From assembly GCF_964194025.1 (NCBI RefSeq), contig NC_134475.1, positions 372,001-436,000 of the forward strand: a stretch of 64,000 nucleotides of DNA. The letters are read 5' to 3'. The translations under genes were made by a program, and so were the position numbers. The stretch's first letter is position 1; every line of letters starts with the position of its first letter. Shown piece by piece: positions 19,475-47,300 of this stretch. The stretch is from Convolutriloba macropyga (lineage: Eukaryota). The notes beneath the pieces were generated by a model. That model was not told where the DNA came from. It searched no databases and saw only the letters and a program-made list of their open reading frames with translations.

Positions 19475-19804
19475 TTAGTGTTTTTCTATGTCTTCTTGAG
19501 TACTATACTTATAAACATGCTCTCTGAATTGATTTCTAGTGTGACCATATCTATATCTATGAAGATAAATACAGAGTCTACATTTCCTATTTCTAAATCT
19601 ATATAATGATATATGTTTATAAACATTAAACATACTACACGTTAGATATTGATCAGGATCAGAATAATGATATCCCAAATGTTCTATATAATCTTTAACC
19701 TTAACCATATTTTTACATACATGACAAGAATATTCTAATTCTTTACAATTATTACAACATTCTTTCCAAGGTTTATTTATACACTTATTGCATTTCATTT
19801 TCAT
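19475..19804 (-). CDS. Small Cys/His-rich zinc-finger protein
   Basis: 109 aa with CxxC pairs and C2H2-like CHVC...HLGYH. Start context AAAATG. Confidence 0.6.
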   Translation of the reverse strand: MKMKCNKCINKPWKECCNNCKELEYSCHVCKNMVKVKDYIEHLGYHYSDPDQYLTCSMFNVYKHISLYRFRNRKCRLCIYLHRYRYGHTRNQFREHVYKYSTQEDIEKH

Positions 19805-19849
19805 TTTTCGAAAAATTATTTTTTGATTATTTCCCTAAAAAAATACATC

Positions 19850-22800
19850 ATGTCTCAATCAACTAATACTAGTGTCATAAACTTCTGCGATGTCTGTAAT
19901 CTATCCTTTGAATCAAAGAAGGGTTTATACAGACACCAATCTTATGATCTCAAACATAAGGAACTATTGGAGAAAATGTTTGAGTCTGAAGAAGAAGAAA
20001 TCTTGGAGAGGGTGTATAATCCGGATGAATATGATTATATTATTAAAACTAGGGCTAAAACTAAAACAGAAACTAAATCAGAAACTGAAACTGAAAACAA
20101 TATCTATTCTAAGATTAGGTTTATATGTAAAGAATGTCATGAAGAATTTGGAAGTAAAGTAGCTCTAACTACTCATTCATATAGTCACAATCGCATGTAT
20201 CTAGAAAACACAAAAGACTTCGATATAAACTCAAGTCAGAACATGAGAGAATTTTATATTACTGATAAAGGTGGGAATTACATTGAAGATATAGATGAAG
20301 CAACTAATTACTCTTTAGAAGAAATTAAAAACTGTTACCAGTTTCGTAAAGTTAAGAGTTTTAAATATAAGATCACGGCTGAATGTGATTATAAGAAGAG
20401 AACCAAAGAAGAAGTTAAAACTACTAAAATATTTTTCAATACTGATTATATTAATAATAATGCTATATATGAATATGGTGACTTCAATCGGTGGCTAGAT
20501 TTCGAAAAGGAAATATATGAAGGTTATGGTTATGATTTTGAGTTTCTTGGAATAAGTATTCAGTTAAACATTGAACCAACTGAAGCATCTATTGGTAGTT
20601 ATATAGATTTACCTCCTGATCTCAAAAACTCTAAATCGATATTAAATATACGTAGTTATAAATACAACTGCTTACAACTAACTATAACTGCTTGGCTACA
20701 TCCCGCCCCACACCATGCAACTCGAGAAAGTAAATATGTAGATAAACTAATTGAACCAAGACAACAACATGAAGATGATTTTGCTTATATAATAAGAATA
20801 CAGAAATTGTATAATATTAATATTTGGTTATACACACCTTGTGGTAATGGTAAAATAGAATTGTTTAAACAAGTGGTTGATTTTAATAAAGATAGAAAAG
20901 ATGTAAGAATACTAGTTTGGAGTAATGGTCAAATAGAACACTGTGCCCTAATAAAAAATATAGAAACCTTGTTAGAACGACCAAATGAAAACAACATTAA
21001 ATATTATTATTGTGATAGGTGTACCTATTGGTTTAACTCACAAATTAAATATGATAAACACGAATGCAGCACCTCATTCAAACCAGAGATTGTTTGTCCT
21101 AAGAAAAAACATATTACTTTTATAAATGAACACAAACGTCAGAATATAAAAAATATTTTAACTGCCGATATAGAATGTTGCATTGTTGAAATCTCAACTA
21201 ATGACTGTAAATATGTAATAGCTGAACATATTCCAATAGCTGTGGGTTACACCTGGCAAGGTAACTTCAAACACTACTTTGGTCTAGGCTGCATCAAAAG
21301 ATTTGCTAGAGATCTATTAGAAATAGAAACTGAGAATAATTTCAAACATAATGAAAAGATGATATTCACAGAAGAAGATAAATTATATCATGAAACTAAT
21401 AACACTTGTCATATCTGCAGCAAAACATGTATTAATAAAGTAAGAGATCATTGTCATGAAACTGGTAAATATAGAGGACCAGCATGTAAATTATGTAATC
21501 TAAGATACAAACAACAAAACTTCATTCCAGTAATATTCCATAATGGCTCTGGCTATGACTTCAACCTACTATACAGTGAACTCTTCAAACAGAATAATGA
21601 TAAAAGAAAAGTGGATAACTTACCACTAGCTGTTGGTAAGTCTAAGATGTTTAGCATTGGTTGTCTTAAATTCTTAGATAGTTATAACTTCTTAGCTATG
21701 CCCCTAGATCAAATGGCAAAGATATATGGGTGTAAAACTAAAACATTATATCCATATGAATACTTTGGTTTAGACTCCTTGGGAACCACGACAAAGTCGT
21801 ATAATAATCTTATAGGTAATCTAAAAAGAGAAGACTTCAAATCCTCTCTACATAATAAATTACCAACACAAGAAGATGTCGATATCTTTAATAAAGACAA
21901 CAGTCATAAAACTGGTAAAGATCTAACTATAGAGTATTTACAAAATGATGTGGAAATATTAGACTACTGCATGAATGAATATGTTAAACTAAGTATGAAA
22001 GAATTCAAGCTTAACCCACTACATTATGTAAGTCTCCCAGGTTATAGTTTTGATTGTTGGTTAATGTCAAGCGGTGTAACATTAGATACATTGCAAGATA
22101 AACAAATGCTAGATGATTTTGTTGGAGCAAAGAGAGGTGGTATATGTGGAATAATGGGAGATAGATATATAGATAACAGTGATGGTAAGACCATATGGTA
22201 CATAGACGCAAACGACCTATATGGTTATGCAATGATGCAAAAGTTACCTTATAAGGATTTTGAGTTTATTTCTACTACTACTCTAGATGTAATATTGAAT
22301 ACTCCAGATGATAGTGATCACGGTTACTATATAGTTTGTGATATTGATTATACTAATGAATGTAAAGAGAGAACAGAACAGTTAGCACTAATGCCTAATA
22401 AGAGAAAGATAAATGATAATGGATTGGGATATCGACAAAGAGAGAAAAGTAAAGCAAGATCCGAGAAATTAATCTTAGACCAAAACAACAAAACAGAATA
22501 TATGGTTTATTATAGGATATTAAAGTTCTATGTTAAGATGGGAGTAAAAGTAACAAAAATACATAGAGTAATTAAATTTAAACAAGACTACATATGTAGA
22601 GATTATATACAAAACAATACAAATAAAAGAGCAACAGCTAAAACTGAAGCAGAAAAGGATGTAAGGAAATTAATGAATAACTCATTATATGGAAGAATGT
22701 GCATGAATCCTCTACACTTCTTTCAAAGTAAGTTCTTGCATGATGAAGAAAAGATAATGAAAAGTGTAAGTAAACCAACATTTAAGAATATAACTAGATA

Positions 22801-23550
22801 TAGAGATTATAGCCAAATAGAATATATAAAGAAAAAATAGAATATGATTCTCCAGTATATGTAGGTGTTACTATCTTAGAATAAAGTAAATTACACATGT
22901 ATGATGTATTCTATAATATTCTACAACCATCCCTCAAAGATCTAACACTTCACTATATGGATACGGACAGTTTCGTATTAAATTATAGTGAAGGTAAAGT
23001 TAGTGATGAGCATATGGACTTAAGTAATCTAGACATACCTATAAAAACTAATAATAAAGTCCCCGGCAAGTTTAAGCACGAGCTGGGAAGTAGGATTATT
23101 GAGGAATTTATAGTATTGTCCCCCAAAACATATAGCTTCAAAAATTATCCTAAAAACACTAAAGAAAAAGGAATAAAGAAGAATAATAATGCTAGGCACA
23201 TAGATTATTATGATGCATTAATGAATAATACACAGAGAACAATAGATGAACGTAGAATACAAAAAGTTGGTGATAACATGACAACAACAAAAATAAGTAA
23301 GATTAGTCTAAACACATTTGATGATAAAAGATTTTATGTAAATAATATTAAAAGCTATCCTCATGATGAGAATCTATATCTATTCAAAAGAGATTTAATA
23401 AAAATGATCCACCAAGCATCAGTGAAACTGCTTCGCAGATCATTAGATGGAGACAAAGACCTACTGGTTAATAATATTCTAGAACTAACCATTAATGATG
23501 ATAGAAAGTTAATTGAAGTTGCTATTATATTATATAATGAGCTTTGCTAA
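19850..23550 (+). pseudogene. Protein-primed family B DNA polymerase (pPolB), disrupted
   Basis: N-terminal C2H2 fingers, vOTU-like NCLQLTITAWLHP...HCALIK, exonuclease ADIEC and FHNGSGYD, Endonuclease VII-like CHIC..VRDHCHETGKYRGPACKLCN, and polymerase motifs DANDLYG, KLMNNSLYGR, YMDTDS. Frameshift in an A-run near 22835 and in-frame TAA at 22882-22884. Confidence 0.95.
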
Positions 23551-23566
23551 TTTTTATAACAAATAA

Positions 23567-23887
23567 TTATAGACCTAATTCATTCATTACATCCATAGGG
23601 TTGGTAGTTAGTATATTATAAATCATTATCTGAGCCATATATTTTTCCATAGTGTCTCCCTTGATTGTATTCTTATGTAGTGTAGCTCCAGCTATTATAT
23701 TTTTATTATATTCTAGAAATTTTATTATCTTCCCAGCCCCATCTACATATTTAGAATAAGTTGAAATTATTAAATCATCATGATTTGGTTCCTTAATATG
23801 ATCAATAAACTCATCTATAGTATTACAACGTCTTTTACAAGCTAAACATCTTTTTAGATTAAGAGAGAAGCTGTTTTCATTATTCAT
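23567..23887 (-). CDS. Small C2H2 zinc-finger protein
   Basis: CLACKRRCNTIDEFIDHIKEPNH. Head-to-head with the ORF at 23924. Confidence 0.6.
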   Translation of the reverse strand: MNNENSFSLNLKRCLACKRRCNTIDEFIDHIKEPNHDDLIISTYSKYVDGAGKIIKFLEYNKNIIAGATLHKNTIKGDTMEKYMAQIMIYNILTTNPMDVMNELGL

Positions 23888-23923
23888 TTTTTACTCTTAT
23901 TATAATTTTTCAATACATATAAA

Positions 23924-24834: not shown

Positions 24835-25743
24835 ATGACTACGTCCATCAGGGAACCTGCTTCGCAGATGACTATGTCCATAAATAAAACGTTAGAAAAA
24901 CAACAACAACAACTAGCTAAAGAAGTATTCAGTCCTCAAATAACAAAGTTTAAAAGACAAAGAATAATACCACTATATAAAGATGAAACATGGTCATCTG
25001 ATTTAATTGATGAGTCATCTCTAAGTAAATACAATAATAATTATAAGTTTATATTAACAGTTATAGATATATTCACAAAATATGCATGGGCTATTCCTTT
25101 AAAGAATAAATCTGGTTTATCTATAACTAATGGTTTTAAAACAATCCTATCAGAAGGACGAAAACCAGAAAAATTATGGGTAGATAGAGGTAGTGAGTTT
25201 TACAATCAAACATTTAAATCTTCACTTAAAGAATATGGAACCGGCAAAGCCGCTTCAGGGATAGAGCTATATTCTACTTATAATGATTTAAAGGCTGTGT
25301 TTATAGAGAGATTTAATAGAACATTATTACACGTAATAAATAAACCAATGTTCATCAATGGAGATGGTAATTGGGTAAATATATTAAATGATGCTGTTGT
25401 AACATATAACAATAACATTCACTCAACAATTAATATGACACCAGTTGATGCTTCTAATAATCCTGATAAAGTTAAATACACTTTTAGTTTTAAGAATATT
25501 AAGGGTAAACTTAACGTTGGTGATTATGTTAGAAATGTAGATAAACGTTATATCTTCTCTAAAGGTTACACTTCTAATTGGAATAGAGAATTGTTTAAAG
25601 TGAATGAAGTTCTAAAAACACATCCACCAACATATGAAATAGAAGATATTAATGGAGAGATAATAGAAGGCAAATATTATGTACAGGAACTATTGAAATC
25701 TGAGTTTGCTTTTGAATCTAATAATAAAGTTTTAGAATCATAA
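24835..25743 (+). CDS. Retroviral-type (rve) DDE integrase
   Basis: WSSDLID, ILTVIDIFTKYAWAIPLKNK, LWVDRGSEF, IERFNRTL, and FSKGYTSNW typical of Polinton integrases. Confidence 0.95.
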   Translation: MTTSIREPASQMTMSINKTLEKQQQQLAKEVFSPQITKFKRQRIIPLYKDETWSSDLIDESSLSKYNNNYKFILTVIDIFTKYAWAIPLKNKSGLSITNGFKTILSEGRKPEKLWVDRGSEFYNQTFKSSLKEYGTGKAASGIELYSTYNDLKAVFIERFNRTLLHVINKPMFINGDGNWVNILNDAVVTYNNNIHSTINMTPVDASNNPDKVKYTFSFKNIKGKLNVGDYVRNVDKRYIFSKGYTSNWNRELFKVNEVLKTHPPTYEIEDINGEIIEGKYYVQELLKSEFAFESNNKVLES

Positions 25744-26990: not shown

Positions 26991-27218
26991 AGATATTGGT
27001 GTTTAGTAATAACAATGTTTTTAGTAATAATAATATTAGTATTAATATTTATCCGCGAACAGACTTCGTCTGTGGCAAGCCAGGCGGTTACACCGATCAG
27101 GGAACCTGCTTCGCAGATCGATAAATATATAATCATAATCATAGCTATAATCATAATCATAAACATAATCATGGATATAATCATGGATATAATCATAATC
27201 TTAATCATAATCAAATAT

Positions 27219-27638
27219 TTATCTTTTCTTTGTACCTAAGTATAACCCTCTACCTTTTTGTACTACCTTTATACCTTCACCAGTAGTTGCAAATTTAATT
27301 AAATCAGGTGTAGCCGCTAGAGCTGCTTTAGGGTTTCTAGATGCAGCTGCACTTCCTATTTTACTTGCTATTTCTAATGCTCTTCCTGGATTATTAGCAA
27401 CTTTCTTTCCAAAGTTAACTGTAGCCCTACCAACACTTTTAAAGAAATCTTTAAGCCCTTCTGCTTCTATTGTTGCATCAGATACTGTCATTGATTTATT
27501 CCTTCTACATAAAACACAATTACCTTTTAACATTTTAGTACCTTTTGAAGTGATAGCTCCTCTTATATTAACAGTACCACTATAATGTCTACTTCCAACA
27601 CAATATAAATTAGTTTTGAACTTATTTAAAAGACTCAT
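27219..27638 (-). CDS. DUF5679-like zinc ribbon plus amphipathic putative membrane-lytic core protein, copy 1
   Basis: YCV....T.KG..MLKGNCVLC..NKS, followed by GLKDFFKSVGRATVNFGKKVA and KGRGLYLG. Confidence 0.65.
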   Translation of the reverse strand: MSLLNKFKTNLYCVGSRHYSGTVNIRGAITSKGTKMLKGNCVLCRRNKSMTVSDATIEAEGLKDFFKSVGRATVNFGKKVANNPGRALEIASKIGSAAASRNPKAALAATPDLIKFATTGEGIKVVQKGRGLYLGTKKR

Positions 27639-27656
27639 TTCTATATATAAAAAATA

Positions 27657-27806
27657 ATGGAAGTTAAAAAGTATAATCCTTTTGTTGTTATTAAACCCAA
27701 GCCCAAGCCCAAGGTTAAGCTTGAAGCTAGAGGCTTGGCTCTAGAGAATAAAAAGAAATTAGACATTATTTTCGCTAAAGGTTTTGTTAATACTAATAAG
27801 AAATAG
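27657..27806 (+). CDS. Unannotated 49-aa basic protein (putative core protein), copy 1
   Basis: MEVKKYNPFVVIKPKPKPKVKLEARGLALENKKKLDIIFAKGFVNTNKK*, preceded by TATATAAAAAATA. Below the ORF-track length cut-off. Confidence 0.55.
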   Translation: MEVKKYNPFVVIKPKPKPKVKLEARGLALENKKKLDIIFAKGFVNTNKK

Positions 27807-28008
27807 TTGGGTGTTAACAAGAATAACAAAAGTAACAATTAGAGCTGACTAGCTATAAGTATAAGTATAAGTATATGGTTATGTATATAATTATAACAAT
27901 AACTATATTATACTATAATTATAAATTATCGCTAGAGTTATATCTAAAATTATAATTATCGCTAGAGTTATATCTAAATTATAATCATATCTTTGACTTA
28001 AATTATAT

Positions 28009-29187
28009 CTATGATATTATGTCTACCATCTTATTACCATCACTATTCACACTAATAACCTTTCTAGTTAATACTAATGCATGACATATAACATCTGCAA
28101 CTGCAGCACTAAATTTAAAATTAAGTTGTAATGGTTGTGGACCTATATGATCCCTTTGATATCTAGCATCGAATACATATATTCTATAATTACTTTTGAA
28201 TAATCTATGATTTACATACGGTTTTATATTATGTGGTAGCCCATTATAATCTTTATTAAAGCTAACAATCTCTTTAAAAGCCTCATTATATTTATTGGTT
28301 CCGTAATTAATATTCATTCTATCCTCGGGATAAAACTCACTACCAATCTTACAATAACATTCAGTAACATTCATTACATCAAATGTACTTGCATCATGAG
28401 TTTGTTCATTAACATTATTATTTTCAAAACCAACTATTATATATTGCGGTCTTTCCATACCACTTTCTATACCTAGATCAAAGAAGAAGTTAGTAGCATT
28501 GGGTACATTCTTATAAAATGTCTTTCTTTCATAATAACTAAAGTCTACATTATTCTTTTTACTTAAACCCTTTTGCACAATAATTCTATTATCATTACTA
28601 GGATCAATACTAGGTACACACCATGATATATCTCTGATTTCTATATTACCATCATTAGCAACTGCACCAGGATTAGCATTAACTCTATATAGAGCTCTAT
28701 CATTATTATTCCTTTTTAATATTAGTTTAAATCCTAAACCATATATGATTTTTTCTAAATCATTTACGAAACCAAATAGATCACTCATCTTAATCATCAT
28801 ATACATATGTCCTCGTTGTGCAGCAATATGGTCACCTTTAAGTTGACTATCTCTATTGCCCTGATTTCTAACAAAACCACTCTCATATTCATCACCAATA
28901 CTAGTTAATAACTTATACATCAATAGATTAGGATGACAATGGTCTATATATTCAATAGTCCTACCACCACTAGTTTCAAGCTTAATTGAACTAAACAATG
29001 CCATCATACCATAATTAACTAATCTGATATTAGCATCATTAGCAAATACACCACCAGCATCATCTGATACAACAAACTCTATCTCTAGATATGAATCACG
29101 CAAATTTAAGTGATTCTCTTCTCTATTGAGAATGATATTAATATTAGTATTAACCGTATTCATTGTTGCTATATTATTAGGTTTATA
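28009..29187 (-). pseudogene. Major capsid protein, 5'-truncated duplicate
   Basis: Identical to the MCP at 31468-32712, but the true start is cut off by the duplication junction. Confidence 0.85.
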
Positions 29188-29223
29188 GTTTTAGAATCAT
29201 AAATATATTTCTTAAAATAAATA

Positions 29224-29928
29224 ATGACAAGAAACAGATTCAATCAAGCGAAACATCATATAGGGAATGGAAACAACTTAACACTAAGTAAGGCTCGTGG
29301 GTTATTCCTAGAAGATAATGATGATATTGATATGAAGGATACCTGTAAAATTACAAATGTTCATCCTCCTAGAGATGAAAAAGATGTTGTTAATAAAGAG
29401 TATTGTGACAATAACTTATTATCCTCTTCTAATAAAATAGACATTTTAAGTAGAAACATAACTGAACTAGGAAAGGGTGACTTTGATAAAGTTACAACTA
29501 AAACATTACAACTAAATGAAACACAAGTTAATGAAGAACTAATTAATGAGTTTATTGAATCAACAAATGAAGTCAGAAATACTGTTAAGTTTTGTAATAA
29601 AGTTGCTGCGGATACTATCTCTAAATATAATCAATTAAAGCAAGAATTTGATAATAATAAGTTTAATCAGAATATAACTAACATACAACCAGATGAAATG
29701 TTTACTAACGGTCTGAGAGAAATGAAAGAATACAATAAATCTCTTAGAGGTGTTATAGTACAATATATAATTGCTATACTTTTGCAAAGTAAGTTATTTG
29801 ATAATAAAGAGAAAGACAGACTTGAGATGCATTATAGTTTTAATCAAGAAGATATAACGAAAGAAATAGAAAGAATTTTTACTAATAAAAATAAGCAAAG
29901 CAATGACCAATCCAACAGCACCGAATGA
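29224..29928 (+). CDS. Fibre/stalk-like coiled-coil protein, copy 2
   Basis: Protein identical to 25765-26469. Confidence 0.6.
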   Translation: MTRNRFNQAKHHIGNGNNLTLSKARGLFLEDNDDIDMKDTCKITNVHPPRDEKDVVNKEYCDNNLLSSSNKIDILSRNITELGKGDFDKVTTKTLQLNETQVNEELINEFIESTNEVRNTVKFCNKVAADTISKYNQLKQEFDNNKFNQNITNIQPDEMFTNGLREMKEYNKSLRGVIVQYIIAILLQSKLFDNKEKDRLEMHYSFNQEDITKEIERIFTNKNKQSNDQSNSTE

Positions 29929-30449
29929 GAGATTACTATATCCAGATTTGTCATCAGTATCAGAAAGATTGATAAACGAAAAGATTCAAGCTAATAATAA
30001 ATTTAACAACAATATTAACATTATAAAAGATATTAGAAATTATTATGAAACTGAAACTAATAACTATAATAAGAAGTTAAGTAGATATAAGAATTATATT
30101 AACATAGCTGAGATAACAGAAATAGTATTATCATCAATAGCAACAACTGCAACAACAACATCAGTTTCATTAACAGGTATAGGATCAGCTTATTCTGCAC
30201 CAACAGCTTTTGCTACAGCAACTGTGTGGTTCATTATCAAAAACAATTGATACTAAAATTAGAAATAAAATTATAAAGTATTCACAAATGTATATTTTAA
30301 GTAAACAGTTTAGTGATAAGTTTAATAAACTATATACTAAATCAATGAATGATAATAAAATAGATAATGATGAGTATAATGAATTTGTTAAGTTATATGA
30401 GGATTATAAGAAGAATAAGAAAAACAAGCTGAGTATTTTTTTAGATTAA
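29903..30449 (+). pseudogene. GasderminX-like protein, frameshifted, copy 2
   Basis: Same frameshift as copy 1. Confidence 0.55.
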
Positions 30450-30677
30450 AGATATTGGTGTTTAGTAATAACAATGTTTTTAGTAATAATAATATTAGTA
30501 TTAATATTTATCCGCGAACAGACTTCGTCTGTGGCAAGCCAGGCGGTTACACCGATCAGGGAACCTGCTTCGCAGATCGATAAATATATAATCATAATCA
30601 TAGCTATAATCATAATCATAAACATAATCATGGATATAATCATGGATATAATCATAATCTTAATCATAATCAAATAT

Positions 30678-31097
30678 TTATCTTTTCTTTGTACCTAAGT
30701 ATAACCCTCTACCTTTTTGTACTACCTTTATACCTTCACCAGTAGTTGCAAATTTAATTAAATCAGGTGTAGCCGCTAGAGCTGCTTTAGGGTTTCTAGA
30801 TGCAGCTGCACTTCCTATTTTACTTGCTATTTCTAATGCTCTTCCTGGATTATTAGCAACTTTCTTTCCAAAGTTAACTGTAGCCCTACCAACACTTTTA
30901 AAGAAATCTTTAAGCCCTTCTGCTTCTATTGTTGCATCAGATACTGTCATTGATTTATTCCTTCTACATAAAACACAATTACCTTTTAACATTTTAGTAC
31001 CTTTTGAAGTGATAGCTCCTCTTATATTAACAGTACCACTATAATGTCTACCTCCAACACAATATAAATTAGTTTTGAACTTATTTAAAAGACTCAT
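30678..31097 (-). CDS. DUF5679-like / amphipathic core protein, copy 2
   Basis: As copy 1 except for one G/S difference. Confidence 0.65.
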   Translation of the reverse strand: MSLLNKFKTNLYCVGGRHYSGTVNIRGAITSKGTKMLKGNCVLCRRNKSMTVSDATIEAEGLKDFFKSVGRATVNFGKKVANNPGRALEIASKIGSAAASRNPKAALAATPDLIKFATTGEGIKVVQKGRGLYLGTKKR

Positions 31098-31115
31098 TTC
31101 TATATATAAAAAATA

Positions 31116-31265
31116 ATGGAAGTTAAAAAGTATAATCCTTTTGTTGTTATTAAACCCAAGCCCAAGCCCAAGGTTAAGCTTGAAGCTAGAGGCTTGGCTC
31201 TAGAGAATAAAAAGAAATTAGACATTATTTTCGCTAAAGGTTTTGTTAATACTAATAAGAAATAG
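31116..31265 (+). CDS. Unannotated 49-aa basic protein, copy 2
   Basis: Duplicate of 27657-27806. Confidence 0.55.
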   Translation: MEVKKYNPFVVIKPKPKPKVKLEARGLALENKKKLDIIFAKGFVNTNKK

Positions 31266-31467
31266 TTGGGTGTTAACAAGAATAACAAAAGTAACAATTA
31301 GAGCTGACTAGCTATAAGTATAAGTATAAGTATATGGTTATGTATATAATTATAACAATAACTATATTATACTATAATTATAAATTATCGCTAGAGTTAT
31401 ATCTAAAATTATAATTATCGCTAGAGTTATATCTAAATTATAATCATATCTTTGACTTAAATTATAT

Positions 31468-32712
31468 CTATGATATTATGTCTACCATCTTATTACCATC
31501 ACTATTCACACTAATAACCTTTCTAGTTAATACTAATGCATGACATATAACATCTGCAACTGCAGCACTAAATTTAAAATTAAGTTGTAATGGTTGTGGA
31601 CCTATATGATCCCTTTGATATCTAGCATCGAATACATATATTCTATAATTACTTTTGAATAATCTATGATTTACATACGGTTTTATATTATGTGGTAGCC
31701 CATTATAATCTTTATTAAAGCTAACAATCTCTTTAAAAGCCTCATTATATTTATTGGTTCCGTAATTAATATTCATTCTATCCTCGGGATAAAACTCACT
31801 ACCAATCTTACAATAACATTCAGTAACATTCATTACATCAAATGTACTTGCATCATGAGTTTGTTCATTAACATTATTATTTTCAAAACCAACTATTATA
31901 TATTGCGGTCTTTCCATACCACTTTCTATACCTAGATCAAAGAAGAAGTTAGTAGCATTGGGTACATTCTTATAAAATGTCTTTCTTTCATAATAACTAA
32001 AGTCTACATTATTCTTTTTACTTAAACCCTTTTGCACAATAATTCTATTATCATTACTAGGATCAATACTAGGTACACACCATGATATATCTCTGATTTC
32101 TATATTACCATCATTAGCAACTGCACCAGGATTAGCATTAACTCTATATAGAGCTCTATCATTATTATTCCTTTTTAATATTAGTTTAAATCCTAAACCA
32201 TATATGATTTTTTCTAAATCATTTACGAAACCAAATAGATCACTCATCTTAATCATCATATACATATGTCCTCGTTGTGCAGCAATATGGTCACCTTTAA
32301 GTTGACTATCTCTATTGCCCTGATTTCTAACAAAACCACTCTCATATTCATCACCAATACTAGTTAATAACTTATACATCAATAGATTAGGATGACAATG
32401 GTCTATATATTCAATAGTCCTACCACCACTAGTTTCAAGCTTAATTGAACTAAACAATGCCATCATACCATAATTAACTAATCTGATATTAGCATCATTA
32501 GCAAATACACCACCAGCATCATCTGATACAACAAACTCTATCTCTAGATATGAATCACGCAAATTTAAGTGATTCTCTTCTCTATTGAGAATGATATTAA
32601 TATTAGTATTAACCGTATTCATTGTTGCTATATTATTAGGTTTATATTTTATAATCTTACTTTTATGTATATCATTTTTATAACCATAAATTGCATCCAA
32701 ATTAAAATCCAT
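31468..32712 (-). CDS. Major capsid protein (double jelly-roll, Polinton PY/hexon-like)
   Basis: About 414 aa from ATG 32712. Beta-rich: LRDSYLEIEF, IRLVNYGMMALFSSIKL, ISWCVPSIDP, ERPQYIIVGF, FYPED, IYVFDARYQ. Confidence 0.85.
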   Translation of the reverse strand: MDFNLDAIYGYKNDIHKSKIIKYKPNNIATMNTVNTNINIILNREENHLNLRDSYLEIEFVVSDDAGGVFANDANIRLVNYGMMALFSSIKLETSGGRTIEYIDHCHPNLLMYKLLTSIGDEYESGFVRNQGNRDSQLKGDHIAAQRGHMYMMIKMSDLFGFVNDLEKIIYGLGFKLILKRNNNDRALYRVNANPGAVANDGNIEIRDISWCVPSIDPSNDNRIIVQKGLSKKNNVDFSYYERKTFYKNVPNATNFFFDLGIESGMERPQYIIVGFENNNVNEQTHDASTFDVMNVTECYCKIGSEFYPEDRMNINYGTNKYNEAFKEIVSFNKDYNGLPHNIKPYVNHRLFKSNYRIYVFDARYQRDHIGPQPLQLNFKFSAAVADVICHALVLTRKVISVNSDGNKMVDIIS

Positions 32713-32728: not shown

Positions 32729-33571
32729 ATGACAGACAACTTGATTTTATATGAACTACAAAATATACACGAAGCTTTAACTAAAACTAAAGAAGAGCAT
32801 ACACTTAACTTTAGAATGATAAAACCAACAGAAAAGTTTAACTTTAGTGAACCTATACTTAATACAACAAAATTAGGTTTAATTAGATTATCTGTTTATA
32901 ATTCGGTGTTTAATGTGAATAGGAGAAATAATCAATTCTTATATGCTAGTACTGTTATCGAAGATGATGAAGCTTTACCTCAGGCTCTTAGCTCTGACCC
33001 TAACCTTAACCCTATCTCTGACTCAAGTCCAAACATTACATCTATACTTAATCATAATTATGAAGGAATCCCATTGCTATATTCAACTATTACACCGGGA
33101 GCATATGAGTTAACTGACATAGCAGAATTAATAAAAGAAGAAACTGATGGTAATGTTATAATAGAACCTGATAAGAATACGATGAAATGTTTAATGGAAA
33201 TAAAACAAGGAGCACTCAGCTTTGATATAGAAAACTCACTAGCCTCATTACTAGGATTTAGAAAAATAATTTATAAAAAAGGTAGATATAAATCTCAGAA
33301 AATTATTGATATTATGGGTTTTAGTACTATTAACATTCATTGTAATGTGATATCTGGAGCTAAAGATAATGGTAAAGATACAGACATACTATATACTTTT
33401 AATCTAACTGAACCGCCAGGTTACTTGATAAATATTGTACCAACTAATATCTTGTATCAAAATGTAACTAAAGATAGAATAGAATATATAGAATTTCATA
33501 TTAAAGATGAGTATGGAAGACCTATAGACTTTAATGGAGATGTATTAAGTTTTACTTTACATCTGGTGTAA
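32729..33571 (+). CDS. Minor capsid protein (penton, Polinton PX-like)
   Basis: TITPGAYE, SLASLLGF, INIHCNVISG..DILYTF....PPGYLI, and IEFHIKDEYGRPIDFNG. Confidence 0.88.
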   Translation: MTDNLILYELQNIHEALTKTKEEHTLNFRMIKPTEKFNFSEPILNTTKLGLIRLSVYNSVFNVNRRNNQFLYASTVIEDDEALPQALSSDPNLNPISDSSPNITSILNHNYEGIPLLYSTITPGAYELTDIAELIKEETDGNVIIEPDKNTMKCLMEIKQGALSFDIENSLASLLGFRKIIYKKGRYKSQKIIDIMGFSTINIHCNVISGAKDNGKDTDILYTFNLTEPPGYLINIVPTNILYQNVTKDRIEYIEFHIKDEYGRPIDFNGDVLSFTLHLV

Positions 33572-33624: not shown

Positions 33625-35060
33625 CTACAAAACTCTCCGATCCCAATTAATTCTTAGTTTACCATTAATATTTTTATTTTTAGTTATATCAATGACAATG
33701 TAATTATAAGGCTCTTTCCATACCTTATTACATATATTAGCAAAATCATTATAACTAAGTTCAACATTATCAAAGAAATCTTGATATATCGATGGTAGGA
33801 CTTTAACTCTCTGTTCAAATAAAATAAATAGATTACAGTTCTCTCTAACACTCTGCCTATCCAGAGAGAACAGCTTTTGATTAAGATATATCATATTGCA
33901 ATTATTATGTCTACCTCTACAAAAGTATTCATTAATAACTGGTTCTTTGGCTCTAACATCATCGAATATCATTAGTTTCTTTAAGTCTTTGGGTAGTTTA
34001 TCGGGAGATGGTAAATCTTTTATATCTTTAATAAATTCAACATCTGCTTTGGGGTTTATTCTTTCTATACCATGGTACTGATCACCATTAGGTCCAATGA
34101 TGTATAGCTTATCAAAGTATATACTAGCTAGAATTAGTTTTTTCAATAAGAATGTCTTACCACATTCACTAGGACCAGATATTATACATCTAAAGTTATC
34201 TGGGAATGCGGCTTCAGTAATTATATCATCATCATTTAACCATGAATATAGATCATCATTTATGTTTACAGAGATACTGTTAGTAGGACTATGGGACTTC
34301 GTCCATGTTTCACCATTGTTATTAGGTTTAAACTTTTGATGAGGCTTCACCCATCCGGGAACCGGTTCCACCGATGTTTCACCATGTTTTTCATCCAATA
34401 TATATGAAAAATTATCATTATCATGATCATTAACATTAACCTTATCATTATCATTAACATTATCATTATCATTAACATTAACATTAACATTATCATTAAC
34501 ATTAACATTATCTTTATCATTAAAATTATCATTATCATTAACATTATCTTTATCATAAACATTAACATTAACATTATCTTTATCATTAACATTACAACTG
34601 AAACAAAAACACTCATTATATATTCCTGGATATTTACATTGATTAACTAGAATATTCAAAGCACTTTTAATTCTAAATCCTCTATCAATAAGATAGATCA
34701 CATGTAAACAATAAGCCCAACAATAAGATTCATCATATTGTTGTATTCTTTCATTAGAGCCTAGATCAATATATTCTTCTAGGATTAATGGTGGAGTTTC
34801 TACACCAAAACTATCAAAGTAATACACAGGACCATCTTCTCTTCTTATAACTAAAACTCAATGTGAACCTTCAGTTGGATGTAGATTTACAATAATGTTA
34901 GAGTTAGGTTCACTTACCATTTCTGGTTTATCATCTCTCATTACAATTTCAATTGGTGCTAGACTTATATCTTTGCCTATATCTTTTATTCTGATATCAC
35001 TCATAGCATTATTATCAATTTTAAATTTTTATTGAATTCCTCAAAAGTCAGGATGAGCAT
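33625..35060 (-). pseudogene. Adenain-like cysteine protease fused in frame to an A32/FtsK-type packaging ATPase
   Basis: IIVNL..TEGSH*VLV (TGA at 34858-34860 in place of the expected W), YYFDSFG, RIQ....YCWAYC, a (DN/VN)n linker, then Walker A GPSECGKT, Walker B LMIFDD, RGRH and YLNQ. Probable A-run frameshift near 35028. Confidence 0.85.
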
Positions 35061-35144
35061 TTTTATATAATAAATTTATTAAATCTAAGTCTAATTATAT
35101 GTCTAAGTCTAAATCTAAATCAAATCTATATTTATTATATAAAA

Positions 35145-36754
35145 ATAGAAACAGGTAGTGCAGTTTTTGTTTTTATTATTATAATTGGAATTTGCTATAT
35201 AATATATGATTCAAGACCAAGTAAATATACAAAACTAGAAGAAAGCTTTGGTGGATTTATGAATAGGAGTGTAGTTAGATTTGAATATGAAAATTCACCA
35301 TTACATACTATTGTTTATGGTGGAACTGGTACAGGCAAAACATATTTTATTAGACAATATTTAAAATTATACTCAGTCCAAAACCAAGATCTGCGAAGCA
35401 GTTTCACTGATCAAGATCAAGATCGAGATTAAGTTCAAGATCAAGCTAAAATTATAGTTATAGTTTGTAAAGATGACAGAGACTGGATAGATCCTGAGTC
35501 TAATAAGTTTTATACTGGGTTTAATAAATGTGATATAAATATGATCACAAAAAAGAATATGCATAAATTTCAAAATTGTGTAATAGTACTTGATGATATG
35601 GGTGATAGGTTAAATAAGGATATAGGTTATTATTTTACTGAAGGTAGACATTATAATATTCAAAGGATTGTAATGTGTCATAAACCAGCTCAAATAATTA
35701 ATACAGCAAGAATGAGTTGTGATACTATTTATTTAACAACTTATAATGGACCTGACCTATTTAAAAACTTTAATGAGATATATAAATGTGAACATGACTT
35801 CAATAAAATAATTAGTGAATTAAATAGTAACTATTATAATTATACAGATGGAATGTCAGATGAACTTCGTTATGGTTTAATTAAATATAATAAAAAGGAA
35901 AATACTTTTATTATTATTAGTAGTAATAGAACAATGATATATGATTCAAGAGTTGGTTTCCTTGATTTAAAAGCTCTTAGTTTAAAAGATGATTTAGAAA
36001 GAGAAGACATAAATAAACTTATAGCATATATGAAACCACTAATGATTAATGCAACAGATAGAAATATTAATCATGATAATTATCAGTTTAATTTTAATAA
36101 ACTTCTTACTTTAAATAATATTAAAATACAGAATGATGTTGTAACTAAAGAAATGATTATGGGAAAGGGTATGAAAATTTTATCAACTATTGGTGGAATT
36201 ATAAGCTCGGGTTTAATTATATTTAGCTTATTTATCCTGATTCAATATCAAGAAATGCTGGAACTATAGCAATGGGAGCAAGCACAATGTTGAGTAGAGT
36301 AAATACATTAGTTAATGTTGGATATGGAGAAGAATTGGAAGGTGAAACACGAAGCAGTTTGGTAAACCATGAACAAAGTTCGTATACTGATAGTGAAACA
36401 TGGTCGAAGACCTATCAGGAAAGCAGTTTGGTAAACCAAGAACAAAGTTCGTATACTGATCAGTGTAACTGTGACTTCGTCAATGAAGAGATGGGAATTT
36501 TGAATAGAAAGGGAGGAAGGTTTTTAAACAAACTATATGGAAATAATGAAGAATTTAGAGAAAAGATTATAAATTTTGTTAAAGATAATAAAGAATTAGA
36601 CCTTGATTTGATCTTAGATAAGAGATGTAAAACTAATACACTCAATACTTTAGGAAATAAATATTTAGCAGAGTGTATCACATCTAAAGATAATACTAAA
36701 GGTTTACTTGAAATCATGGCTAAATATTTTTCTACAGCCTGGCTAATTTTATAA
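35145..36754 (+). pseudogene. Second A32/FtsK-type ATPase with N-terminal transmembrane segment, disrupted
   Basis: The frame from 35145 (ATA, probably a mutated ATG) reads ETGSAVFVFIIIIGICYIIY...IVYGGTGTGKT, then TAA at 35430-35432, then VIVLDDMG, EGRH, VMCH. Hydrophobic segment and frameshift near 36230. Confidence 0.8.
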
Positions 36755-36769: not shown

Positions 36770-37687
36770 ATGCTTTTACAATGTTTAGAGTGTAACTATA
36801 AATGTGGAAACATTGCTGTTTTAAATTATCATTATGAATGATTTCATAAAGATAGAACTGATAAATGTATGTGTGGTAATATAATATTAAGTGGCATTTG
36901 TGCTAATGATTTTTCCCCATGGGGTTGTTCTTTAAAAAATGAATCTAGTTCTAATTCTAATTCTAGTTCTAACCCTAGTTCTAGTTCTAATTCTAGTTCT
37001 AACCCTAGTTCTAACCCTAGTTCTAACCCTAGTTCTAGTTCTAACCCTAATTCTAACTCTAGTTCTAACCCTAGTTCTATTTCTAACCCTAGTTCTAGTT
37101 CTAGTTCTAACCCCAATTCTAGCTCTAGTTCTGGTTCTGATTCTATCTATGACTATAACTCTAACTCAGATCCTAACCCCAACCCTAACCCTATCCTTAA
37201 CCTTATCCCTAACCCTAACCCCAGCTTAGAAGTATTAACTAGATGTTGTAATAAGTGTAATTATATAAAACCACTAAATAATTTTGATGAGGGTAAGTAT
37301 ACATGTAGAAGTTGTACTTCAGCTAAAGTTAATTGTCCATATTGTACTTCTGTTGTGAGATATGATGGGATACGGGCTCATGTAAAGAAACAACATCCAG
37401 ATATAGAATTGACTAGAGGATTTAGTAGAAATATAACTGATCGGTGTAACCGCTTCGCGGATAAAACAATTAATCCTAGTTGGCAAAGTCCTAGAGCTGT
37501 AAGTCCTTTAGTTATTAACCAAACAGAGGATCTGCGAATTAGCAAAACAACTCCGTTGAGTAGTTTCACTGATAGTTGTTCATGTAAATATTACAATTTT
37601 GTATCATTTCTTATTAATAATGGAATAAATATAGAAAAAATGAAAGAAAATATCAATTTATTGAAAAGTATAGATAATTTGAAATAA
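36770..37687 (+). pseudogene. Multi-zinc-finger protein with Ser/Asn/Pro low-complexity linker
   Basis: ATG at 36770 reads CLECNYKC...HYE*FH (TGA 36839-36841), then CNKC..IKPLNNF....CRSC and CPYC...HVKKQH. Confidence 0.65.
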
Positions 37688-37886: not shown

Positions 37887-38014
37887 ATATAGTAGTGGAT
37901 AAAACAAGGGATTCAACAAACAGTAAAATTTGGCCTGATTCGACATGCGCGATTAGCGTTAGGAGAAAGGGACAAATTTTGCTGGTGGTTGAATCCCTTG
38001 TTCTATCCACTACT
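37887..38014 (-). repeat. Right terminal inverted repeat (internally palindromic)
   Basis: Reverse complement of 17563-17690. Confidence 0.95.
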
Positions 38015-40760: not shown

Positions 40761-41363
40761 GTTAGTATTTAGCCTGCCTCTTTCCTTCGCCCTCTTATCT
40801 GATTTTCAACGTTTTGTGAACATGGAGCAGCTATTTTGTAATTATTCGTCATGTCAGTGCAGCTATTTTCGCAGCATGAAAGGTGTTCTCTACACTGCTG
40901 CCTATTAAAAATATAACAACAATTAAAAAAGAGTGTCACATATTAATAATAATAACGAAGGATTTAGGATTGGAAATGATAGCGGGAAATTCGGCAGGAA
41001 ATTATAGCGATTTTAATTAATCGTTTAATTAATTTCTAATATGCTTCTAAAACAGAAAACAGTCGGGCAAAAAAAAAGTTTAATTGGCAACAAAGTTCTG
41101 TTTTTAGCAGACTGTCTTTCCAAGGTTTTGATATGATAAAATATCTCGATTTAATTTGTTGTTTATGTTCTGGTGAAATACATTTAGACTTATAGGCTAA
41201 ATGATTCAAAATATGAACAATTATAAGCGATCTAGTGGTGTGAAAAGGCAAGGAAAAGAAAAAATATAAGTTTCTTCAAGGATGGTGTTTAAGCTCTTCT
41301 GCCTAATTCTTGCATACTAAGACGACTTTTCAGCAATATTTTATTTTCTGAGAGTTGCACCCA

Positions 41364-44300
41364 TGGTAGCAAATCAAGCTCTATATATACATTACTATTC
41401 GTGCCATGGGAAAACAAGTTCTGCTCAAAAACGAGAAATCCCTAATATAAATCAATCACTCCTGATTTCTTCAATAAAATCAACATCAATCAGGGAATGA
41501 AGTAACAGTATTGAAGGGGTTTGCGGGACGGAAAAGTATATAAAGGAAGTTTGTTGCTTTAAACTCCCGGCAACTTAATTGCTATAGTGGATAGCGATCA
41601 ACAATTGAGATGAACAAGTTAACTCAAATAAAATATAGTACAAACGCCTCATTCTGAGTTTGAATTTTTTTCATTGAACTTGTTTGAACTTGTTTCAGTG
41701 ACCCTCCGGAGCATCTGACAATCGTGGGAATCGACGGCTGAGGGTTACTGCTGCTCTTGACTTTCCATGTAGCCTTCTGGATGCCGAAGCTCCCTGCTAT
41801 TCCGTCTGCACCTCTGTGTGCGTTCACAACATTCCCAAGAGGCATGATTCCTCGGGGTGTGAAGTCCTTGAGCACCCACACAATGTCGCCTTCGTGAAGC
41901 TCATCATTTGCTTTTTGCCACTTTGTTCTTTTGTTGAGCTCAGGAACATATTCCTTTAGCGGCCTGCTCCAATGGTCATCAAGTACCGTTGCGTCAACCT
42001 AAAGTCCTTAGTGGACAGAGGAGAACCGCTGGTTGTTATTCACAAGAGGTTTCAAACACATGTGCTGTGTGCGCAGGAGGAAGTGATTAGGGGTTAGTGG
42101 TCCCTCATCTAAGATGCTGCCCACATGTGTTATTGACCTGGAGCTCAAATTTGCTTCAGCCTCTGCCACAACTGTCTTGAAAACTGAGAGTTAGTTTCTG
42201 ACTACCCAGCACTATTAGCAGACTCTTATTTGTGATCTCTATTAGCCTCTCCCAGACACCTCCAAAGTATGGTGCCCATGGTGAGTTGAGAATCCACTGA
42301 TTGTTCTGTTGAGCCAATTGCAGTCTGTTGTACACGTTGTCTGGCTGGTAGTTCCTCTGAAATCTTAACTTCATTGCGTGTTTGGCTCCATTGAAGTTTT
42401 TGTCATTATCACCCACAATGAGGTCAGGGTATCCACGTCTTGAAACCAGTCTTCGGGTGGACTTGGGGAGACTATCCATTGAGAGATCGTGACATACTTG
42501 TAGGTGGGCAGCTCTGGTGACCAGAGATTTGAACAAGCAGCCGTAGTGGATTTGAGTATCTGGTCTCTTGTCCTCAATGTAGAAAGGTCCAAACATGTCC
42601 ATTCCGGTATTGACGAAAGTGTACTGCTTGTTCGCATCTGGAAATCTAAACTAGGCAGATCAGCCATTTTTTGTGCTCTCACATTGCCCTTCATCATCTG
42701 CAAATGAAACAGTGTTTCCCCAGACTTCTCAGCACTGTTCGCAATGTAATCATAAGGATTGTCTGTTCCAGGTAAGTGTTCACGTGTTCCACGCCCTGAC
42801 GTTGTGGTGTGCCTTTTCAATTAGTAATCTGGTAATTTTTCTGCTTTGAATAATTGGGATGCTTCGCAATGTAGGTTAGTGGTGTCTTGTTGAGTCTTCT
42901 TCTCACCCTCAAGAGTGCGTCGTCTATAAAGGGCGTCAAACGCACCAGCATGTCTCCTTTCGCAAAATTGCTTTCTCTCAATAGTGAGGAAATTGTTCTG
43001 AGAAAATTTTGTTTTGGGACATCTTGATGAGATAGTTCATGCAGCGTCATATCGCCTAGAATACCATTATTGTAGAGTTGAGTAGTCGACTCCATGTTGA
43101 AAATTTTTCATCCTCAATAACAGGCGCCCGATTTTGTTTTGTTTGCGTAGCGCATACGAGGGCAGCAGTGTCCTCGGAGAAATTGCCCTAATCTTGGTGT
43201 GTGCTCAGAAAGTTGGGTGGTTCAAGCCACAGCTCTGGGATCTATGATAATGTGAGGCTTCTTGTGCCGTGGTCAGCGGGGTTCATCTTTCCATGGCTGT
43301 GTCCCCAGGTGTCCGGGCTTTAATTCTCGTGAATTTTAGTCAATTTTTTCAGCAATACACATCTTCTGTCTGTGCTTGGATTGGATTCATCCAAGTGTAG
43401 CAGTCCTTTCTCCGAAAATGCTTTGAACTGATTATTGTAGTCATTTTACTCTCACAGAACCCAGCTAGCTCTGCTCCAAGTGTTGCCGATTCCAATTCTA
43501 GCTTAGGACTGCTCAGCTGCTTGATCGGTGCCTCTTTTGTTTTGCTGATCACATATCGTGATATGGAAGATACATCGGCGTTGGCTGCCCTCACATACAC
43601 TATGGCAGCATTTGCAGTAATCGAGACGTGTCCATGGCGTCCATGCATTTGATGAGCTCCGTTGATGTTGGAAGTCTAGGAATTTGGATTGAATGCAGGC
43701 TGTCAAAATTGTCCATCGACACTTGCAATTGCTGTTGGCAGCAACCTGACAATGGTTGATCCCAGTCTCCTCCCTTTTTTATGATCTTCCGGAGATTGCG
43801 TCTAATTCTGAGCTCAAATCGTGAAATCATTCTACCATGATCGAATATAGAGGCTGTCATTGATAGCACCTTCCTTTGTGTCAGCTGTTTTCCTGTTTAG
43901 AGAGGCTTTGGTTTTGCAGACATGGGCTTGTCCCTCTTAAGGTCTCACGTCTGACCAAGGATCCCCCGGTTTTCAGTTCTGCCTTGTCTTCTTTCAGTAG
44001 GTTTTCTAATGCGGTTGGTTTGTTGTTTAGGAGCATTGTCAAATTGAATCCGCTTGTCTACAGAACAGTTTTGATCACTTCTGTGGGTCTCCTCTTCAGA
44101 AAGGTAGATCTGCATGATATCTGTGTAAAACTGCTGCGTGGTTGATGTGTATGCCTCTAGATCCTCTTGCTTGTGGTCATTTGCTTTTTTCTTTAGAACA
44201 AAGATTGCACAAGAAGTTGAACATGTGGCTCCAATTATGAGTCAATTTTATTTCATTTTCTTCTCAGTTTCGTCCTCGCTTCACAGAAAACGTAGATTGC

Positions 44301-47300
44301 CATCGTATTGTGCTTGGGTGCCAATATGCATAAACAATGCCTCGATGTTCGCTGTGACTGCTACTGAGTACTATCTGAAGCGGAGAAGGCCATGCAGGTT
44401 GCAAAGTAGATCCTCTCCGGTCAGCAATACATCCTTAAATGGGTTTCTTTTATTTTTTGAAGCAGTGTTTGTTATTCTGAGAATTTTGTCCGGCTTCTGT
44501 TTGTTGATTACTGGGCGATGAGAAAGGTACCAATCCGAGTGTCTCAAAGTGTGATCTGCAGTTGTGACGTAGTTTTTTTAGTTTTTTATTGTCCTCTCTC
44601 TGTCTAGTTTGTGCCCCTTATCCAACCTCTGTTGCAGAGCGTGCCTCTGAATTTGGCCATGAGGTATTTGTTAGGGAGTGTGATGTCTTTCTTCCATGGG
44701 ATTCCAATCTGGTATCTTTCCCAAGTGTGTTCTATGTTATCACCGAGGATGGACACAGCTTCTTTATCATCCAGAGACTGTGACTTGGAAGAGCACTGAT
44801 TGATTCACTCCCTCTCTTGTCCAGAAAAGCTGGAGATCTTCATCGGGATCGTCTTGTTGTCTTGTGATATGATTCAAAAGTGTTATGTTTGTTGGTTGAT
44901 TGGCCTCCCTTCTTCTGAGTGGACTATTGGGGAATGGGCTCCGTCATCGTCCAACCAAGAGGTGTATTGACTCCGTATGGTCCATTTATGAACTTTCTGG
45001 GAGCTGTTGCTGTGATTGCGTCTGCTTCAATCAGTATTTCTATCCGGTTGTCCCTGATTGTTGGAAACTTTTTTCCTGTAGATCAGATTGTTCTCTGCAG
45101 ATCTCACTGTACATTTCAGTTTTAACTGCTGCCATCCGAAACTCCTCTATTGCACTTGCGTACACAGGGATTCTGATCACTGGAGAACTGCTGTACAAAA
45201 CTCTTATAATGATCATCACATCTGCTGTTTTGACTGAGTGTTCACCATGAAGTGAAGCTAGTGGAAGGGTTATGTCCTAGGTTGGTTAAACTTGAAGTGC
45301 GTCCGTAACCTTCTGTGTTATTTGTGTGTTGTCACTACCGCTGTCCAGCAATACGTAGGTCGCAATACAACGATCTCTGTTGAAATGTGTGATGGTTATC
45401 GCCTTTTGGTTGCTGCAAGTGAAGTTTTCTTACTGAATAGTTGCCTGCTGTTGGGCTACAGTGCGCTGAATGCTGCTGCTGTTGTTGTTGCTCTTGGGGT
45501 TCAGCGGCTGACGGTAAAAAAAACTTTTTGATTCCAGTTGCCCCTGTGTTAAGTGCTCCTGTTCACTCCACCTTGTCTGTTCTAGGTTCCGTTCTCTTGG
45601 TTGTAGTTCGAACTGGTCTGCTGACTTTGGTTTTAATTACGTCCATAGTTTTGGTTTCTTTTGGTTTGTGTGGTTTTTGAAGTTGTTGTTTTGTGAGATT
45701 AGATTTCAGTTCCCACTTGGTTGTGCATTTTGTTGCATGGATCATTCATCTGCCCTATGGAGTGCAGAGTGATGGTGGCCATTGCATCTTCCCACAAGGC
45801 ACCTTGTTTTGATGGCCAGAAGCTTTTTTCGTGAGCTTTTAAGCCGTTAGGGCAGAGATAGAAACTCCTACCTCATCGGTGTTGGTCTTACGCCGACTTT
45901 TCCAAGTAAGCGGGACATCGACCAACGTTGTGGCTTTGTCCGCAGCGATTGACATCACACATCCGTTGGCCACCTTCTAGAAGAATTTTTTACTCTGCTT
46001 CCGTTGTGTGGAGATGTCCCTGCATGCTTCTGCGTATGAGTCAATCCAATCAATAAAGTGGTTAAGGCTAGGTTGCGACAAAGATTGGGTTCTTGTGTGT
46101 TGATTCCTTCTGATTATCATGGTAGCGTTCAGTTTGTCCCTGACTCTTCTCAAAACTGCTGAAGACTTGAGATCAGCTTCAAAAATGTGAAGACGGAAGG
46201 TTTGTACCAATCTCCTCAAAAAAGATGCAAATCTTACAAAAGTGTTCATTTCGTCTCATCTGGGCTTAGGCTACTTCGCCAATGGATCCAAATATGCAAT
46301 ATGCTGAGGTTTGCCAAATTTCATGGTCAGTTCAGCGATGGATTCATGATAATAGTCCCCATTGTAGGAGTCCCTGTGAAGTGGTCAATTGATACCTTAG
46401 GGAAATTCAATGTGTTCTGGAACATCAGTGCTTGGTGTAGCATCTTTTCTGGTGGAGAACCCGGCAAACGCGGGAAGTCACTGTTTGGGTTGTTTTTGTC
46501 GTTGGCTCAGTATTCATCAGATCCGTAACTTTTGTCCAGTGGCTGTTAAATTTTTCGGGGTGTGTACCTGTAGCTCATGACCGGACCAGCTTTGCTAGTG
46601 TTGTGGTGAAAAGAACCCGGTTTTTGGTATTGCCCTGCTCTGTTCTGTACACACTAATATCGGCTTTGTCTTGGATTATGGTTCTCTTCTCTTGATCGAC
46701 CTGAATTTTGTCAGACTTTATCTGTTCTCATTGCCCCTGAGAGAAACTCCCTGTTCCTTCCTCTCTCTTCAATGTTTAGAAGGGTTGAAAGTTGTCGGGG
46801 TTTCAGTGTCGGGCGGGACAGCAGTGCTATTCTCCTGATTGTTGCGGCTTGCAAACTGAGATTTCATTGCTCTATTGCGTAAGAGGTACTGCCTCCCCTG
46901 TAGATTAGGGGAAGGCTCTGTTGATGTGTTAAGGGCAGATTCGGTATCACTTGCGTCCGTTCTGGGTGCGTTTGTTCTCCATTTACATTTCAGCATCATT
47001 ATGAGCAGATTCATTAGCAAGGTTTGTCAACTCTTCACTTGTTAGCTGTAGCTTCGTGATTCCACTGCAATGTCTGTCCAGGTGATTCTTCTGTGTCCTC
47101 AAGAGTTCCAAAGTTTCGCGTAGTTTTCTTCGACGTTGACTACTACTGTTTTCCAGTTCGGCGAGCTCTTTTTACTACGTTCCACTTTGTCACCTTCGGC
47201 GGAAGTTGTTGCTTGAGGCTGCAATTTTCTTAATTTCTGATGATTGAAAATCTCATGATTGCAAATCAAGCTCTATATATACATTACAATTCTCGCCATG

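Follow-up and report, generated by a model that had tools for sequence, protein, structure and literature searches.

A second, predicted membrane-anchored ATPase in Polintons of Convolutriloba macropyga and in palindromic elements without detectable capsid genes

Why should a Polinton carry two ATPase genes head to head, one of them apparently tied to a membrane? In the sections available of PMC3671162 and PMC11161782, the Polinton core consists of pPolB, an integrase, capsid genes, a protease and one packaging ATPase. In the window (the whole 64,000-nucleotide stretch of C. macropyga DNA analysed here), a sequence-only reading had noticed a further, membrane-anchored A32/FtsK-like ATPase (35145..36754, + strand; here called the TM-ATPase) facing the canonical one. 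It had proposed an extra DNA translocase for membrane crossing or for a lipid-containing virion. We find that the second ATPase, with its predicted anchor, is a real, conserved variant of the Polinton system, undescribed within the accessible part of the literature searched.

The window element is a broken copy of a high-copy Polinton/Maverick, which we named family A. Its left TIR (17563-17690, + strand, 128 bp, beginning AGTAG) and right TIR (37887-38014, − strand, 128 bp, 98% identical to the left) have the AG..CT ends of Polintons, and a 6-bp target-site duplication flanks the element on both sides. Between them lie pPolB (19739..23550, +; DNA_pol_B_2, E 3e-27), a retroviral-type (RVE) integrase (24835..25743, +; rve, E 1.7e-7, slightly below the cut-off), a DJR capsid protein (MCP; 31468..32712, −; DJR-like profile, E 4e-24) and a likely mCP (32729..33571, +), assigned by its position and by alignment to mCP-like ORFs of families B and C (see below), with no Pfam match. 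A protease, assigned by its motifs and also with no Pfam match, and a packaging ATPase complete the Polinton gene set. The element further contains a small Cys-rich ORF (19475..19834, −), another small ORF (23567..23890, −) and a zinc-finger ORF with a Ser/Asn repeat (36869..37687, +). Thus, the element resembles Polinton/Mavericks in its AGTA-starting TIRs, its 6-bp duplication and all of these core genes. It differs from them in having two unrelated ATPases head to head, one of which is fused to the protease, and in a TM-ATPase with an N-terminal anchor and a C-terminus longer by about 230 residues. With the TM-ATPase as query, the 1.18-Gb genome yielded 3357 candidates, and the 148 of these that were scored were all 89-100% identical; the facing ATPase as query yielded 4438 candidates.

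Several other rearrangements and genes were seen in the window. A 3459-bp tandem duplication within the Polinton (25725-32640, near 100% identical) includes a number of ORFs and the greater part of the capsid gene. At other loci (L040, L031/L033, L096), the TM-ATPase or polymerase region is locally duplicated in tandem inside elements, which suggests slippage-prone replication. Directly left of the Polinton TIR, host DNA carries a tandem duplication of about 4.9 kb (7600-17430, 95-100% identical) with a 268-aa frame in each copy (11750-12556 and 16619-17425). An uninterrupted 704-aa frame at 2699-4813 (+) matches RICTOR_N (E 6e-15) and is an unusually long exon for a RICTOR gene. To the right of the element, at 41600-47000 on the minus strand, lies a decayed LTR retrotransposon, presumably Bel/Pao-like, with diverged repeats at 41362-41503 and 47254-47419.

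The TM-ATPase gene is broken in the window copy, where three lesions affect it: the start-codon position (35145), a stop (35430-35432) and a frame break near 36227-36233. As the sequence-only reading had held, its N-terminus lies beyond the ORF track, with the stop at 35430 in frame, and the quoted motifs share one + strand frame: the hydrophobic segment AVFVFIIIIGICYIIY, Walker A GGTGTGKT, Walker B CVIVLDD (quoted as VIVLDD), GRH and ILSTIGGIISSGLIIFSL. In unbroken sister copies the gene is a single frame of 518-542 aa, which takes in the window's separate ORF at 36272-36754. We compared 52 family A loci (L002-L054 minus L033, a tandem fragment), whose subfamilies reach down to 55-63% identity in the ATPase core. 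In 41 of the 52, the hydrophobic segment and the Walker A region share a frame, and an ATG precedes the segment in 34 of those 41. This excludes a start at ATG 35259 without the segment, and database proteins that begin at that position probably come from copies damaged at the 5' end.

After Walker A (35319..35342, +) come a low-complexity insert, rich in Q/D and varying in length, and then Walker B (hhhhDD), GRH, a His at the sensor position and an AR motif (35577..35729, +). The gene thus has the A32-like/FtsK-HerA motifs Walker A, Walker B hhhhDD, GRH and a downstream Arg. The Pfam profile Pox_A32 scores 29.3 bits on the window TM-ATPase and 29-33 bits on family A copies (cut-off 22.8), whereas FtsK_SpoIIIE (14-17 bits, cut-off 24) and TrwB_AAD_bind (12-13 bits, cut-off 20.5) stay below their thresholds. 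Most genomic copies of the gene are broken. Pairwise dN/dS in family A, from partly decayed copies and non-independent pairs, is 0.12-0.17 for Walker A, 0.35-0.51 for the core, 0.43-0.56 for the anchor and 0.77-1.20 for a predicted hairpin further downstream. In family D, a second group of elements described below, the core gave 0.32-0.50, likewise from partly decayed, non-independent pairs. Judged from these ratios, purifying selection acts on the TM-ATPase gene in family A and in family D.

The predicted N-terminal TM helix (signal anchor; 35157..35210, +) precedes a conserved juxtamembrane KY..L...F.G motif. On the Kyte-Doolittle scale (KD), used here for hydrophobicity, residues 4-22 have a mean of 2.26 and a minimum of 1.77 in a set of 27 distinct variants that share 48% identity on average. 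Helix 2-23 has a pLDDT of 83-90 in two AlphaFold models, both of which are low-confidence overall (mean pLDDT 58.8 and 59.0) and predict the hairpin region poorly. Conservation and structure prediction therefore support the proposed N-terminal hydrophobic anchor on a second, distinct A32/FtsK-like ATPase. By the same hydrophobicity and models, the protein is predicted to have the anchor ahead of the motor that is a trait of FtsK/SpoIIIE, TraB and VirD4. The further hydrophobic stretch that the sequence-only reading had pointed to fared less well: the end of the window stretch is off-frame beyond the frame break, and its hydrophobicity was overstated. What does hold in the sisters is a Gly-rich, weakly hydrophobic helix (mean KD 1.23) followed by an amphipathic helix (36170..36330, +), together forming a predicted hairpin of low confidence that evolves fastest within the gene. 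A second transmembrane helix, as the window copy would suggest, was therefore rejected. The C-terminal helical domain (36480..36754, +) has a pLDDT of about 90 in one model, gave no clear fold match and is unrecognisable in family D. In the predicted topology, one N-terminal helix spans the membrane and the ATPase faces the cytosol or the nucleoplasm; this orientation is predicted from basic residues after the helix, which are clearest in family D. A 46-nt direct repeat (D16, 76%; 35171-35216 and 35906-35951) has one copy where the anchor helix ends and the other in the C-terminal strand of the ATPase domain; each encodes ..IYDSR. Derivation of the anchor from this repeat is unsupported, as divergent copies and family D retain the anchor without that motif.

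The facing gene (33625..35060, −) proved not to be the stand-alone canonical ATPase of the earlier description. Its motifs GPSECGKT/IFDD/RGRH are present on the minus strand as reported, in a soluble A32-like ATPase with a Gln sensor. However, this ATPase is in frame with an upstream cysteine protease (motifs H..W, FDSFG and Q..YC), which we take to be adenain/Ulp1-like, through a D/N-rich microsatellite linker of variable length. The window fusion is broken in its 5' part by a stop (34858-34860) and a frame break near the start. Protease and ATPase motifs share one open frame at 8 of 30 loci (the window, L004, L006, L007, L009, L021, L024 and L030); the remaining loci are cut by the locus end or have a broken linker. 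Open frames of 480-560 aa surround the facing ATPase in many genomic copies. The fusion possibly yields a self-cleaving polyprotein. The protease gene lies on the strand opposite to the TM-ATPase in 52/52 family A loci. In the window, the gap of about 85 bp between the diverging genes (35059..35146) contains a perfect 17-bp inverted repeat (35059-35075 and 35130-35146) that sets the same A/T motif before each start, from which we infer a likely shared two-way promoter.

Next, we considered how the two ATPases are related. Similarity between them is low (27% over 79 aa; hhalign 73.7% over 52 columns), and the AU test rejects a clade that joins them (p-AU 0.0004), so that a recent duplication of the facing ATPase does not explain the TM-ATPase. 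In a tree of 30 sequences, 29 of them from this genome or database look-alikes and one a phage outgroup, with Polinton and NCLDV references from elsewhere outside the set, the ATPase of the fusion clusters with the one soluble ATPase that family B has (91/86). The TM-ATPases of families A and D group weakly (83/54). A Gln sensor after strand 4 is a defining A32-like/FtsK-HerA trait. The facing ATPase and family B have it, whereas the TM-ATPases of families A and D have His. This His is not a marker of a TM-ATPase clade, as the soluble packaging ATPase of family C (L078/L079:4413-5180) has it as well.

Fold comparisons were made with the same low-confidence models. For both, the top Foldseek match was adenovirus IVa2 (E 1.7e-4 and 6.7e-4), with virophage and NCLDV A32-like ATPases also among the best. 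The best solved-structure match was the packaging NTPase B204, followed by VirB4/HerA, all of them weak (Z ≤5.2). Like the TM-ATPase, IVa2 is an enlarged ATPase of the packaging kind, but the TM-scores are about 0.2 at 10-11% identity, and we know of no membrane anchor in it. An ESM Atlas search had its top match (0.89) in A32-like clusters, which we treat as a lead; the C-terminal half of the TM-ATPase had no match there. A PDB sequence search gave no useful match, and we identified nothing in the TM-ATPase that resembles the DNA-recognition domain of FtsK or TraB.

A search of the genome with Pox_A32 led to families B and C, which are ordinary Polintons, and to family D. Families B and C (7 loci of 9.9 kb rather than whole elements) have one soluble ATPase of 236-246 aa adjoining capsid genes, and no TM-ATPase. 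Family B Polintons also have an ORF, presumably encoding a U-box ubiquitin ligase-like protein, and a repeat protein beside the ATPase (L080:2946-4291, L081:3951-4598). A GC-rich 25-kb contig (L088, G000:C232:7500-17400) carries capsid-like and A32-like genes unlike those of the host's AT-rich Polintons, and may be a PLV from a symbiont or a contaminant. In family D, the TM-ATPase has an orthologue of 390-410 aa that keeps the anchor and the motifs. Between the D and A proteins, blastp gave 25.7% identity over 288 aa and hhalign gave 99.7% (E 5e-26) over 263 columns that run from the anchor to beyond the ATPase domain. The two proteins have the helix, the juxtamembrane motif and the region after the ATPase domain in common. 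With one D protein alone Pox_A32 was not listed; other D copies were above the cut-off in the genome search. Compared with the usual packaging ATPase (soluble, about 230-280 aa, encoded with capsid genes), the TM-ATPase is thus anchored by prediction, 390-540 aa long and present at 33 sites without detectable capsid genes.

The D TM-ATPase had 141 matches in the genome, many of them converging pairs about 3 kb apart. We analysed 33 D sites, 12 of them out to the flanks and 21 over the central 9.9 kb; an example is G000:C8:34704400-34719700 (L094, L077, L095), and there are 32 others. Family D elements are whole-element palindromes of 12-15 kb whose arms are mostly 92-98% identical. Each arm contains pPolB, a homologue of window ORF 19475 directly upstream of the anchored ATPase (40-54% identity), the ATPase itself and a zinc-finger ORF downstream of it, which is a weak homologue of the window's (32% over 53 aa, E 0.002-0.005). 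A homologue of ORF 23567 (about 50%) occurs in one of two subtypes, which differ by opposite pPolB orientation. Even among 18 D sites chosen for looking unpaired, 14 had two converging copies. The ends begin AGTAAT, and of the 10 elements examined the six with both ends found all have a 6-bp duplication. Arms are 95.4% identical within an element and 91.6% between elements, with the own arm as best match in 6/7, and a central hairpin is common to 5/7. The palindromes are not assembly fold-backs, as the arms differ by 3-6%, the termini are defined and target duplications flank them.

The integrase and capsid module of an autonomous Polinton were not detected in family D. By tblastn, the MCP, mCP, protease and integrase of families A, B and C were found at 0/33 D sites. 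A profile search of 49 D loci (481 kb) likewise found no MCP, mCP, protease or integrase (best E 1.6), whereas MCP, mCP and protease were detected in control loci at E values as low as 1e-157; the controls included no integrase-bearing locus. Six full D arms are covered to 76-86% by assigned genes, with no gap longer than 900 bp and no unassigned ORF longer than 96 aa. As 6-bp duplications are present without a detected integrase gene of its own, family D needs integrase in trans. The layout suggests that D replicates through a fold-back dimer and that family A may be a hybrid in which a D-like outer module was joined to one for the virion. The polymerases of A and D are only 25-29% identical, which means that any exchange of modules was old or piecemeal.

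The TM-ATPase travels with replication genes. As it is retained under selection in family D without detectable capsid genes, it is probably not a motor for the element's own capsid. This orthologue, kept in elements without detectable capsid genes, shifts the balance between the two proposals of the sequence-only reading: it makes a DNA translocase for membrane crossing more likely, and a motor for the element's own lipid-containing virion less so. Our preferred explanation, which we hold tentatively, is that the TM-ATPase is a membrane-tethered ring pump that moves the DNA of the element independently of a capsid, and that the fusion fills the capsid. The protease-ATPase fusion would likely do ordinary capsid filling. 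The TM-ATPase, held in the membrane by its single predicted N-terminal helix, would form a ring, hydrolyse ATP and act on double-stranded DNA, as its protein family leads one to expect, and this ring would move replicated linear element DNA through or onto the membrane. For an FtsK-HerA motor that carries an anchor, a tethered ring of this kind, working like Streptomyces TraB, is the least complicated mechanism. Against such a pump, one anchor helix makes a tether and not a pore, and the second helix is marginally hydrophobic. Also, family D relies on a helper integrase and could borrow capsids too.

This last point leads to the alternative that the TM-ATPase is a packaging motor for a membrane-containing particle, with D as a satellite that loads helper capsids using its own anchored motor, later captured by A. 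We consider it doubtful. In its favour, the fold matches viral packaging ATPases, at weak scores, D has to obtain integrase from a helper, and its size of 12-15 kb is within the Polinton range. Tectiviruses and NCLDVs package through an inner membrane, and the constant position opposite the protease-ATPase across the 85-bp gap (52/52 loci) suggests co-expression with capsid-assembly genes. However, family A already has a typical packaging ATPase, the one that groups with the single ATPase of family B, and the B and C stretches do with one soluble ATPase and no TM-ATPase. Moreover, the identity of only 25% between the TM-ATPases of A and D is what a long separate history would leave.

An unlikely alternative to the pump is a membrane tether or gate by which protein-primed replication or segregation of the linear DNA is attached to the nuclear envelope or ER, or that serves exclusion or host manipulation. 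In favour of such a role, the gene accompanies pPolB and zinc-finger ORFs and not capsid genes, and in the available part of 10.64898/2026.10.13.758929 small eukaryotic DNA viruses commonly carry membrane-active accessory genes. The hairpin dN/dS near 1 is what is often found on host-facing surfaces, but it equally fits plain relaxation, and the protein retains all translocase motifs of its family under selection. That the gene is a mere passenger, a duplicated or decaying ATPase whose hydrophobic start is a by-product of AT-rich sequence, is very improbable and largely refuted: the 27% GC of the window DNA favours Ile/Phe/Tyr codons, most copies are broken and the 46-nt repeat links the helix to the C-terminal strand, but the helix, juxtamembrane motif and post-ATPase region are kept at 25% identity, dN/dS is well below 1 and a clade with the facing ATPase is rejected.

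Returning to the membrane-tethered pump, known systems offer partial parallels. In the parts available of PMC4447253, Streptomyces TraB is an FtsK-like hexamer that pumps a double-stranded plasmid through a membrane channel. Like TraB, FtsK/SpoIIIE and VirD4/TcpA, the TM-ATPase is a predicted membrane-tied FtsK-HerA motor on a capsid-less replicon (family D). Unlike them, it has a short A32-type motor, a single clear anchor, no recognisable DNA-binding wing and an animal host, and we use the likeness as a working analogy and not as a claim of membership. In the accessible sections of PMC11161782, transpovirons have lost the structural module and linear plasmids have pPolB. Family D resembles transpovirons and the linear plasmids of fungi and plants in combining pPolB with no detectable structural module, but differs from them in being integrated, with Polinton ends, 6-bp duplications, a whole-element palindrome, a hairpin and an anchored A32-like ATPase. 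A bolder extension of the analogy, which we judge rather improbable, is that family D may be a capsid-free pPolB replicon with an anchored FtsK-type pump, a fold-back dimer and a borrowed integrase. It would pump dsDNA across nuclear or cell membranes as a eukaryotic counterpart of TraB, and the window Polinton would be a hybrid with both pump and virion module.

Scans of viral, metagenomic, prokaryotic and phage contigs with short exact words, which miss distant relatives, confirmed no relatives outside the host lineage, and a pPolB-motif scan gave three phage contigs but no Polinton. In protein databases queried with the TM-ATPase of family A, and not that of family D, the best 120-150 of 251-2103 matches were all close family members (source, where shown: ENA). 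Within the accessible literature, a scope that ends at subscription journals, Repbase and supplements, no second or anchored Polinton ATPase, protease-ATPase fusion or palindromic pPolB element with such a motor surfaced. Neither a second or anchored ATPase nor palindromic capsid-less Polintons appear in the parts available of PMC12721341, 10.1101/2023.10.06.561300, 10.1101/2025.02.07.637071, PMC11161782, PMC3671162 or 10.64898/2026.10.13.758929.

The route by which Polintons leave the nucleus or the cell and reach the germ line is an open question. Packaging ATPases are usually counted in the capsid module, and a member with a predicted anchor, under selection in elements where no capsid gene was detected, uncouples the two. 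The protease-ATPase fusion and the palindromic pPolB elements add two more uncommon architectures to a family that has thousands of candidate matches in this genome. The TM-ATPase is one small protein on which capsid-independent movement of DNA in an animal becomes testable.
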